This document shows, piece by piece, positions 37,687-40,692 of a stretch of 64,000 bases of DNA. The stretch covers positions 248,001-312,000 of the forward strand of contig BCKZ01000007.1 in the NCBI GenBank assembly GCA_001600815.1. Reading direction: 5' to 3'. The notes under the pieces were generated by a model. That model searched no databases and had not been told where the DNA came from. It saw only the letters and a program-made list of their open reading frames with translations. This stretch comes from Alloascoidea hylecoeti. Taxonomy: Eukaryota. Both the position numbers and the translations under genes were made by a program. Every line of letters starts with the position of its first letter. Positions within the stretch are counted from its first letter, which is position 1.

Positions 37687-40600
37687 TCAAATACCTAGAG
37701 ACTTTAAAGATGGCAATTTTACTTTTCTAGCTTTAGAATTCACATCATTCTCACTATTTGTTTGAACTCTAGTAGTACTATTAGGTAATATATCACGGCC
37801 AGCGGTTATAGGTGGTCTAATATTTACCTGGATGTTTTTTTGATGTTGTAGTCCTGGAAATTGATACTGTGGTAGACTTTGACCTTGATATGAATCTTGA
37901 AATTTTTGTTGATTTGCAGCAAATCCTTTCCCAATTGGGGTTAAACTTGCATTAAGCATATGAATCTTCAAAGGCATATTATTGGATTGTAATTTGTTTT
38001 CATAACCACCCTGAATTGGTAAATAAAAGGGACTTAGATTATGATACTCTTGTAATTGAATACTGGGATCTCTCATCAATTGAAATACTGGACTTTGAAG
38101 TGAAGAATTTTTAATAGGATTATTTAAGATAGAGACTCTCTTAGGTTCTTGGATTAACTGTCTTTCCTTGTTATTATCTTTAGGAGAAGAAAAGTAGTTG
38201 AGTACAGAATTGCGTACGTGCTGGTCGTGATTCACTTGCGATTGATCGTTATAATCATCATCACTTGCAATATTTTTAGAAGAAATATTGGAATTCTCAA
38301 AAGATCCTGTTTCTTTTGTTAAATTTTTTAGTTCGCTAAATTGTTCCAATCTCCTTAACGCCAAACTTGAACTTGAACTTGAACTTGAACTTGAACTTGA
38401 ACTTGAACTTGGATTTGGATTTGATTTTGACTTTGATTTTGACTTTGATTTTGACTTCGGACTTTCTTCGATTAAGGTTTCTATGCGGCCAAAAGAGTTT
38501 TGTGGCTGATATTCCGGATTCGAATGATTTTGTGCATTTGCAGCTGAAGACTGTGAGATTGAAGGGTAGGGAGCAATTGCAAGGTAGGGATGTTGCTGCA
38601 ATGCTAATTGACCTCGAGCTCTTTGCAATTCTTCCGGCGCTTGAAGTGGAACATTTGGAAGAAATGTTGGAAATTCCTGTGCACTTGTTGCATTTAACTG
38701 AGGTATCTCATTTCCAATATGAAGAAATTGACGAGAACTATAATTAAAAGTAACAAAAATATAGTTTTTGAAGTTAGTTCTTGTTATTGAAATAATAAAC
38801 GATAAATTCTTGTAGTTTAAGTTTTAGATGTCCATTGAATTATAAATATAAAAGTTCATACTTTTTCTTGCTTCCTTCTTTTCGTAAACGCAGACGAACA
38901 CCTTGCTCGCATACCAGCTTAGTTAAAGCCGTTGAAGGTAAAGAGCCACTATACTTTTTAGGAGTGAAAACTTAAGTTTAAATGTAAGGTTAGTAAATCA
39001 GTATAAGCACTAGGTGATATGACCTAACAGTAATTATAAACTGAATCGAATGTAATCATAAAACGAAATCTAAAAGACGTGAAACACATACCTTCGAAAT
39101 TGTTTGATAAAGTAGATCCCCTGAATTGAAATAGTGTACCTCTTTGTTGTCCGTTAGAATTAGTATTCGTCATAATGTGTATAGATACTTACTGTTGTTC
39201 ATAAACTGTGAATTTCAGCTGATATAGCCCTGTTGTAAGCATTGAAAGATCACTAAATACAAAATAAAAGCCAGATCCACCATGATGTTGAACCTTATGA
39301 CCCGAAGAAACACGAACTCCGATTAAAGGGCTTGCAGCACCAGCATTATGTACTTTTTTATCAGCTGGATTTAGTCTTTTTCCTGTTCGAGTTTTACGTG
39401 CATTGCTTGATTGTGGCACATACATCAATGAATTTGGATAATTATCAATATTCCTTGATGTTGAAGCAGAATTTGAAGATGATTTCATTGTCTGTGGGAT
39501 TTTAGTACAATCGGCTTCCACTGCTTCGCAGATCATAATATAATTTCTGGAAAAAAGCCATTGAGGACTATATTCTATAACCAAATAAAATAACATTAGT
39601 ACTTCCCACCAATCATAATAATGATGGAAAATCCTTGCAATTGAGTAAGATAAATGGATAGGAATATATATGTATGTGTAATATAGTCTTACCTGTAGTA
39701 CAAACTCTGCTGACACTGTTTCCGAACTGCTGATAAGGTATAACCGATGGCCCTTTCACTGACAACTGCACAATAGGTGGTGGGTCAATAGTTCTTCTAT
39801 CAGCCAAACCACATTTATCATATCGTAGTGTGACTTTACATTGAATAGGCTGTTGAACTACAGTAATAGAGTAGCGTGGTTCTGACTCTATTTCATCAAG
39901 GGATTGTTTAGAGCAAATTTGTAGTTGATTTTGATTACGATTAGGGGTCTCATGTTTGTAAATGATATTCTCGTGTGAAGAAAAAGTGTTAGAGTCGTTA
40001 TATAAATCTAAGGGGGGTGGTATCGATTGTTTTAAGGTAGGCAATCTGGCTATAGACTGCTGAGAATAGTTCGGATCTAGACCAAAGGGGATACTGACAT
40101 TTTGCTGAGATTGCATCAGAGATCGAGGTTTTAATTGGTTAGTCAAGTTGTGAGAGGGTACAGGAGTTTGTCTATTAAGATTATATTCTGTATAATGAGA
40201 AGGGGTTGACGCTGAAGACGATGAAGATGATGGTGAAGTAAGATCTCTTAAACTGGAAGTTGGAGTCCGAGACTCTTTGATATTATCATATATCATAATT
40301 TTTGGCATCAAAATAGGACGAGACTTAATTTGGTGTGAATTATCGTGTGATTCAAGTTTAAGTGGCCATGGGGGTAATCTGAGTGAAGCGGTAGTTTGAG
40401 GATCATCTGAAAATGTACGTCTATAGCTAGAACCCGAACGCAAGTCGGAATCCAAGTGCAAAGGAACTTTTGAAGGAAGAGCATCTGTCATTTCTTCATC
40501 CTCAGTTAATAAATTAATGAGTTCAAATTTTGATTTTTGTCGTATATCTTGAGATCTCGAGGAAGATGGAGAAGAAGATTTTATTCCATAACTTGAGAGT

Positions 40601-40692
40601 TTTGCTACACCGTTAAGACCGTTCCGAGTAGTACTGATATTATTGGTCCGTGGGGATGAATATTCGGACTTTAAATTCAAAGGAGAACTCAT
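37687..40692 (-). CDS. Velvet-domain transcriptional regulator (VosA/VelC-like), 863 aa; exons 40692-39693, 39574-39193, 39141-39092, 38970-38862, 38737-37687
   Basis: The spliced product gives the complete velvet pattern: 'YSITVVQQP...CG..DRRTIDPPPIVQL', 'LIG..VSS', 'FYFVFSDLS...G.YQLKFTVYE', 'S..FEVFTPKK..G...ST.LT...EQGVRLRLRKE'. All four GT-AG introns have ACTAA[CT] branch points and keep frame. Confidence 0.88.
38366..38456 (-). repeat. Coding hexamer microsatellites, (CTTGAA)n and (TTTGAY)n, encoding poly-Ser and SK runs in the velvet protein
   Basis: Visible tandem hexamers. Confidence 0.85.

Follow-up and report, generated by a model that had tools for sequence, protein, structure and literature searches.

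The 64-kb window analysed here (positions 248,001 to 312,000 of contig BCKZ01000007.1) in all likelihood holds, at 37687-40692 on its minus strand, one intact intron-containing gene predicted to encode an 863-amino-acid (aa) transcription regulator of the velvet family. In filamentous fungi, velvet regulators tie together development, the survival of spores and secondary metabolism; to our knowledge the model yeasts are without them. Joining five exons of 1000, 382, 50, 109 and 1051 nucleotides (nt) gives a coding sequence of 2592 nt and 863 aa with zero internal stops. This bears out a sequence-only reading of the same DNA, which had proposed that three open reading frame (ORF) fragments and two small exons of 50 and 109 nt splice into a protein of that length. 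The long stop-to-stop frames on the minus strand lie at 39613-40785, 39189-39755 and 37687-38823, and the small exons sit in short minus-strand frames at 39024-39188 and 38840-38971.

Exon 1 (39693-40692; 1000 nt) begins with a start codon at 40692-40690 and encodes a 273-aa N-terminal extension rich in Ser, Thr and Pro, followed by velvet motif 1 (aa 274-313; 39754-39873 in the window). Intron 1 (39575-39692; 118 nt) has donor GTAAGA, branch site TACTAAT and acceptor TTATAG. Exon 2 (39193-39574; 382 nt) covers the variable inter-motif stretch and then motif 2 itself (GVRVSS...FYFVFSDLSMLTTGLYQLKFTVYEQ); it is followed by the short intron 2 (39142-39192; 51 nt; donor GTAAGT, branch ACTAAT/CTAAC), whose acceptor, AAAG, is the first AG downstream of the branch site. 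A second possible acceptor for this intron, at 39121/39120, would lengthen it to 72 nt and reduce exon 3 (39092-39141; 50 nt), where motif 3 starts (GTLFQFRGSTLSNNFE), to 29 nt beginning at 39120. Intron 3 (38971-39091; 121 nt; donor GTATGT, branch TACTAAC, acceptor TTAAG) leads into exon 4 (38862-38970; 109 nt), which holds velvet motif 3 (VFTPKKYSGSLPSTALTKLVCEQGVRLRLRKE), and intron 4 (38738-38861; 124 nt; donor GTATGA, branch AACTAAC, acceptor TTATAG) leads into exon 5 (37687-38737; 1051 nt, including a TGA stop at 37687-37689). This last exon encodes a 350-aa C-terminal extension rich in Gln, Ser and Asn, which ends in KLPSLKSLGI, the terminus given in the sequence-only reading. Within its coding sequence lie hexanucleotide microsatellites (38364-38457; tandem repeats of period 6 and 12, perfect and near-perfect) that are translated as (KS)n, NPNP and about 16 consecutive Ser. 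All four introns have an ACTAAT or ACTAAC branch site shortly 5' of the acceptor, and the acceptors are, in order, TAG, AAG, AAG and TAG.

Splice signals, codon usage and an unbroken velvet alignment support these predicted junctions. We enumerated all frame-keeping GT-AG paths between anchors inside adjoining exons. At the first junction 31 paths keep the frame, and that of the model alone has a GTAWGW donor together with a CTAAY branch site no more than 50 nt from the acceptor. Linking exon 2 to exon 4 in frame takes at least two introns; among 16 two-intron paths, the two with GTAWGW donors and branch sites are those with the 50-nt and the 29-nt exon 3. The fourth junction has two frame-keeping paths with one shared donor, and a branch site precedes the acceptor of the model only. 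Codon usage was scored as a log-likelihood ratio (LLR) trained on eight other long frames in the window, and gave +136.6, +59.6, +5.2, +11.8 and +171.0 for exons 1 to 5 in the frame of the model. For all five exons the LLR is positive in that frame only (exon 1, for example, is negative in both others), and the introns are not consistently positive.

Comparison with other proteins points the same way. A complete, named velvet factor of 206 aa (P0004) aligns to aa 273-313 and aa 416-514 of the model, and the second of these alignments runs unbroken through exons 2, 3 and 4 and into exon 5. The frame of P0002, the only relative found (see below), breaks off at the YEQx where the exon 2 frame also ends, as expected if the two share a GTAAG donor in one phase. 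As to exon 5, the stop frequency of 0.070 per codon gives a chance probability of about 1e-12 for the 378-codon open frame that encloses it; the first Met of this frame is at codon 250, which excludes a separate gene as long as the frame.

As had been suggested with the sequence-only reading, we searched the exons with the Pfam Velvet profile (PF11754), whose curated gathering cut-off is 25 bits. Three matches exceed the cut-off, all of them collinear with the profile: 29.9 bits for profile 1-36 in exon 1 (aa 274-313), 37.7 bits for profile 59-177 in exon 2, and 26.7 bits for profile 206-236 in exon 4 (aa 479-509). An alignment with eight references contains motif 1 (QQP...DRRTIDPPPIVQL), motif 2 (GVRVSS...FYFVFSDLS...G.YQLKF) and motif 3 (S..FEVF.PKKY.G..ST.L...QGVRLRLRK). 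The velvet domain thus extends over approximately aa 274-509, preceded by 273 aa and followed by 354 aa, with its midpoint at about 45% of the protein length, so that its description as central and complete stands.

Independent searches identified the same family. In the ESM Atlas, velvet clusters made up 27 of the 30 matches to exon 2, with a best score of 0.93. When 15 velvet domains were compared with the window by tblastn, 40 of the 42 high-scoring segment pairs fell within the gene, and the remaining two had E values of 0.17 and 0.71. A Pfam scan of 87 further frames of the window (15+36+36) found no second velvet piece, and Pfam gave no family besides Velvet in exon 5 and the N-terminal region. 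The N-terminal 270 aa matched the ESM Atlas at 0.81 at best (a velvet cluster), which is below a meaningful level. The stretches on either side of the domain are of low complexity and probably disordered.

Close relatives are few, and in these searches the 863-aa protein is poorly connected to sequence space. At E<=0.001, HMMER with exon 2 against 1.84 billion representative proteins returned the ORF of the window itself and P0002 only, the latter 141 aa long and 47% identical to exon 2. P0002 retains the core of motif 2, and its neighbouring inter-motif stretch has diverged past alignment. A word-indexed search with exon 1 among longer proteins confirmed none of 3932 candidates at E<=0.001; the same kind of search with the motif 1 region, among proteins of near length, gave two candidates, one being the ORF of the window itself and the other a velvet factor of Thamnocephalis (E 0.37). 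The clusters P0001 to P0003 each have a single member. In metagenomes, a first scan yielded 230 pattern matches, none of which was confirmed. A second scan, with motif 1 patterns, had 343 matches; 180 of these were confirmed, and the 80 best were retained (L001-L080); among these best 80 of 180 loci, none is close to the 863-aa protein.

To which velvet clade the protein belongs was assessed from scores, trees and motifs. Scores against the velvet structures in the Protein Data Bank (PDB) are weak and mixed. Motif 1, at the end of exon 1, scored 19.7 bits to VeA, 16.9 to VelB and 14.5 to VosA, and exon 2 scored 19.7 to VosA, 14.6 to VelB and 13.5 to VeA. For exon 4 the values were 21.9 (VosA) and 19.9 (VelB), with VeA not listed; a two-sequence profile of motif 2 gave 28.6 for VosA, 17.3 for VelB and 19.0 for VeA. 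Summed over the pieces, VosA reached about 56 bits, VelB about 51 and VeA about 33.

For a broader comparison we used as references the 14 of the 80 metagenome loci with a velvet domain in a single open frame, together with P0004, grouped by all-against-all BLAST. One member of each group was labelled by its best PDB match. The first group (G1: L028, L032, L036, L046 and L063) is of VeA type, L036 scoring 212 bits, and the second (G2: L037, L050, L062, L016, L058 and P0004) leans to VelB, L050 scoring 136.5 bits vs 118.7 for VosA. The third (G3: L021 and L038) leans to VosA (L038, 135 bits), and the fourth (G4: L067 and L073) is of VosA type, L067 scoring 173 bits vs 64 for VeA and 49 for VelB. 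Among these 15 velvet references the best phmmer match of the model was the VosA-type L067, at 63.2 bits, and the VeA-type references scored lowest, at 14-40 bits.

Trees also placed the model beside VosA-type sequences. In a 16-row tree it stood next to the two VosA-type rows with support of 89/89, and its end branch, at 4.4 changes per column, compares with a median of 0.11. For a 65-row tree, approximate domains of the other 66 loci were obtained from joined tblastn pieces; nine loci covering less than 60% of the reference and nine exact duplicates were dropped, leaving 48, and the last 56 aa of P0002 were added. The model and P0002 paired at 100/99, and this pair joined three VosA-type rows at 97/86. 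A 43-row VelB clan was split from all other rows at 100/98, with the model outside it; on the far side of that split, the five-row group of the model, P0002 and the VosA-type rows stood together with the VeA and G3 rows. The best tree did not place the model with the five VeA-type rows.

The 65-row tree also revealed an environmental velvet subclade of 35 rows within the VelB-like clan, well separated at 100/99. Drawn from the best 80 of 180 loci, it is abundant, and against the compact VelB-like references its scores are no higher than 119-190 bits.

Two sequence features of the domain are consistent with the tree. The C-terminal motif QGVRLRLRK of the model is identical only to the labelled VosA-type references; the sequence-only reading had called this end VosA- or VelC-like, and its VosA side is the one that these rows uphold. 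Loop A reads CKVTLRYDKCG in the model, ARVAIGKEKG in the VosA-type L067 and L073, and ARMCGFGEK in the others. Like VosA of Aspergillus nidulans (PDB 4N6Q/4N6R; described in the available text of PMC3876986), the model has a single velvet domain with motifs 1-3, and with VosA-type proteins it shares a loop A without the CGFG form, resembling ARVAIGKEKG, and a long C-terminal tail after the domain. It differs from them in its inter-motif 1/2 stretch, which at 112 aa is about 20-65 aa longer than the 45-92 aa of most references, in residues that are identical in 14 or 15 of the 15 references (R446L, E448T, F484Y, P485S and E489P), and in the very long branch on which it lies. From these data we judge membership in the VosA clade, or at least a VosA-like character, to be somewhat better than an even bet.

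Several points weigh against this assignment. Approximately unbiased (AU) tests rejected none of the alternative placements, either with 65 rows (VeA, p 0.285; G3, p 0.095; VelB clan, p 0.174) or with 16 rows (VeA, 0.123; G3, 0.069; VelB clan, 0.12). The stem branch of the model and P0002 in the 65-row tree measures 2.8 changes per column, and with this branch and the end branch of 4.4, long-branch effects may have contributed to the grouping. The references are unnamed metagenome sequences found by the pattern DPPPIVQL, in a set with neither a labelled VelC nor velvet sequences of the yeast clade. VosA-type proteins have an N-terminal velvet domain, and here 273 aa precede it.

We regard it as a serious possibility, although one we doubt, that the protein belongs to another velvet clade (VelC-like, VeA-like, VelB-like or yeast-specific) and that its affinity to VosA is a long-branch or sampling artefact. 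Besides the AU tests, such an origin would fit the preference of motif 1 alone for the VeA structure and the length of loop A, which fits VeA with one gap. The N-terminal extension recalls VelC, in which a long N-terminal region is followed by a C-terminal velvet domain; Aspergillus VelC is like the model in the former respect and unlike it in the latter, since 354 aa follow the domain in the model. The PDB scores for VelB are near those for VosA, and the extra sequence between motifs 1 and 2 has a counterpart in A. nidulans VelB (PDB 4N6R chain B), in which a 99-residue insertion at this point is known according to the available text of PMC3876986. Against these points, the best tree puts the model with VosA-type rows and outside the VelB clan, VeA-type references rank last by phmmer, and QGVRLRLRK and an ARVAI-like loop A are common to VosA-type rows only, motif 3 ending in QG[LI]KIPIR in the VelB-type rows. 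The insert was considered as proof of VelB identity and dropped: in the available part of a 2024 survey (PMC10845976), every clade is variable between motifs 1 and 2, with conservation of neither sequence nor length and per-clade mean domain lengths from about 166 to 408 aa. The same part of the survey classes domain positions as N-terminal, middle and C-terminal.

Returning to the five-exon structure of this putatively VosA-like gene, an error in part of the model is unlikely. Such an error would take one of two forms: the 29-nt exon 3, which keeps the frame and shortens the protein by 7 aa to 856 aa, using the same donor and a pyrimidine-rich TTCAG acceptor; or an unjoined exon 5, in which case read-through of intron 4 would meet a stop after 6 codons and the protein would end in GSKKKYELLYL soon after the velvet domain. 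The junctions of the model are themselves predictions from sequence. Three metatranscriptome runs, searched at 80% likeness, contained no spliced joints; they gave 16 short pieces, all within 38362-38457 at the microsatellite, which come from other organisms, as they continue into unlike sequence. The 50-nt exon 3 nevertheless makes use of the first AG past the branch site, and by residue counts it puts about 14 aa between the YE that ends motif 2 and the FxV of motif 3, compared with about 7 aa for the 29-nt exon and about 16 aa in VosA. Exon 5, for its part, has its high in-frame LLR, a canonical intron ahead of it and no Met in the first 249 codons of its frame.

It is similarly improbable that the host is some other AT-rich fungus, for example one of the Taphrinomycotina, with an ordinary velvet set and nothing unusual about its lineage. 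The GC content of the window is 0.22-0.42 in 2-kb steps and 0.29-0.35 around the velvet gene, and four introns in one gene are many for a typical budding yeast. Yet the splice signals are of yeast style, with GTAWGW donors and ACTAAY branch sites in each of the four introns, and the window encodes fungal SUN-family, VTC and DUF2722 proteins by Pfam.

Velvet genes in yeasts have precedents. According to the available part of the survey (PMC10845976), they occur in part of the Saccharomycotina and Taphrinomycotina, most yeasts being without them, and their loss from a velvet-bearing Saccharomycotina ancestor was inferred there. Those yeast genes, known by description only, resemble ours as velvet genes kept in a yeast-like ascomycete; six yeast taxon names had 0 occurrences in four supplementary PDFs of that survey. 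The sequence-only reading had proposed a retained but diverged velvet system in a yeast lineage, of which an intact and divergent velvet gene is what we find, and the general point that some yeasts keep velvet genes is not new, given what this source reports. What the locus contributes is a very divergent sequence, together with the correction of an unannotated multi-exon gene. On sequence grounds we describe it as a very divergent velvet gene, probably of VosA type.

The extent of the divergence was measured at 40 near-invariant columns, defined as those with a residue common to at least 14 of the 15 references (at 8 of the 40 the search pattern itself dictates the residue). Of the 40, the model retains 29 and differs at 11: P301T, L351A, L428V, R446L, E448T, L457V, F484Y, P485S, E489P, D509E and R511S. 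The alignment confirms the motif changes noted in the sequence-only reading (CKVTLRYDKCG, DLSMLTTG and YSGS), with one refinement: the replacement of ARxCG by CKVTLRYDKCG is real and in part reflects the VosA-type form of loop A. P0002 covers 13 of the columns, keeping 10 and departing at 428, 446 and 448. Its residue at the position of aa 428 is that of the model, and at 446 and 448 it has different, non-consensus residues, so that the consensus R and E of DLSVRxEG have no counterpart in P0002 either. The sharing of changed sites by P0002, with the motif 2 core kept while the adjoining insert diverged, points to purifying selection on the changed state of these lineage-specific substitutions, not decay.

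Some of the changes tell against a conventional velvet function. R446L and E448T fall in DLSVRxEG, and F484Y, P485S and E489P in FPGMxEST. In VosA, according to the available text of PMC3876986, loop A residues K37, K39, R41 and K42 bind DNA, the main contacts being K37, K39 and K42. In the HMMER alignment R41/K42 correspond to RR in the model and K39 to Ala; the K37 position, which is outside that alignment, would be Gly by residue count from the RR. DNA binding may therefore be altered or weakened. Slightly upstream, CKVTLRYDKCG has further basic residues (K, R and K).

That the gene is a relic under relaxed constraint, no longer a DNA-binding velvet regulator, would agree with the very long branch, the 11 of 40 near-invariant residues lost, the missing Lys at the K39 position and the low per-exon scores to Pfam and PDB, but is very improbable, given a frame of 863 codons open through five exons with every splice signal intact, a codon bias typical of other genes in the window, a motif 2 core kept with P0002 though the adjoining insert diverged, and the off-consensus residues of both proteins at aa 428, 446 and 448.

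If this putative VosA-like regulator resembles VosA and VelB of Aspergillus, a beta-sandwich of the NF-kB type would be the fold of its domain. The available text of PMC3876986 describes dimerisation of velvet domains and an effect of vosA deletion on spore viability and on brlA; the protein may likewise dimerise with itself or with another velvet protein. Promoter DNA would be bound through the basic loop A of motif 1, and the Gln/Ser/Asn-rich C-terminal tail of 354 aa could have an activating or regulatory function. By the same analogy, genes for spore maturation, for stress protection or for other aspects of development would be the likeliest to come under its control. A more specific scenario, which we put forward as speculation and think unlikely, is that a VosA-like regulator kept by a poorly sampled yeast lineage has exchanged otherwise fixed residues of DLSVRxEG (R and E) and FPGMxEST (F, P and E), has a reshaped loop A and long acquired tails, differs in partner interface or DNA specificity, and perhaps works alone after loss of VelB, VeA and LaeA. 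The gene offers a natural variant at velvet positions that are otherwise fixed and, as a strongly remodelled velvet copy in an intron-rich, AT-rich yeast-like lineage, a data point on loss or repurposing in an NF-kB-like family.

The window contains no tRNA or Rfam RNA, and several of its other regions drew attention. The 8.9 kb directly upstream of the velvet start (40693-49569) have no open frame longer than 95 aa and no sizeable repeats, and none of the 36 frames of at least 45 aa in this region has a Pfam match. Some yeast developmental regulators have large regulatory regions; this one might be such a region, or might hide small-exon genes or non-coding RNA. At 60380-62878 on the plus strand, a VTC4-like gene occupies two adjoining frames, the SPX start at 60380-60916 and the VTC and DUF202 parts at 60938-62875, as if a very short intron or a change of frame lay at about 60917-60937. 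Three consecutive plus-strand frames of 430-453 aa (8023-9315, 10426-11787 and 12461-13789, together spanning 8023-13789) are without a Pfam family. Finally, a GC-richer island at 19643-21151 (0.42 vs about 0.30) contains a 502-aa frame, likewise without a Pfam family, as well as numerous overlapping open frames on both strands, a sign of coding sequence that is repetitive or of biased composition.

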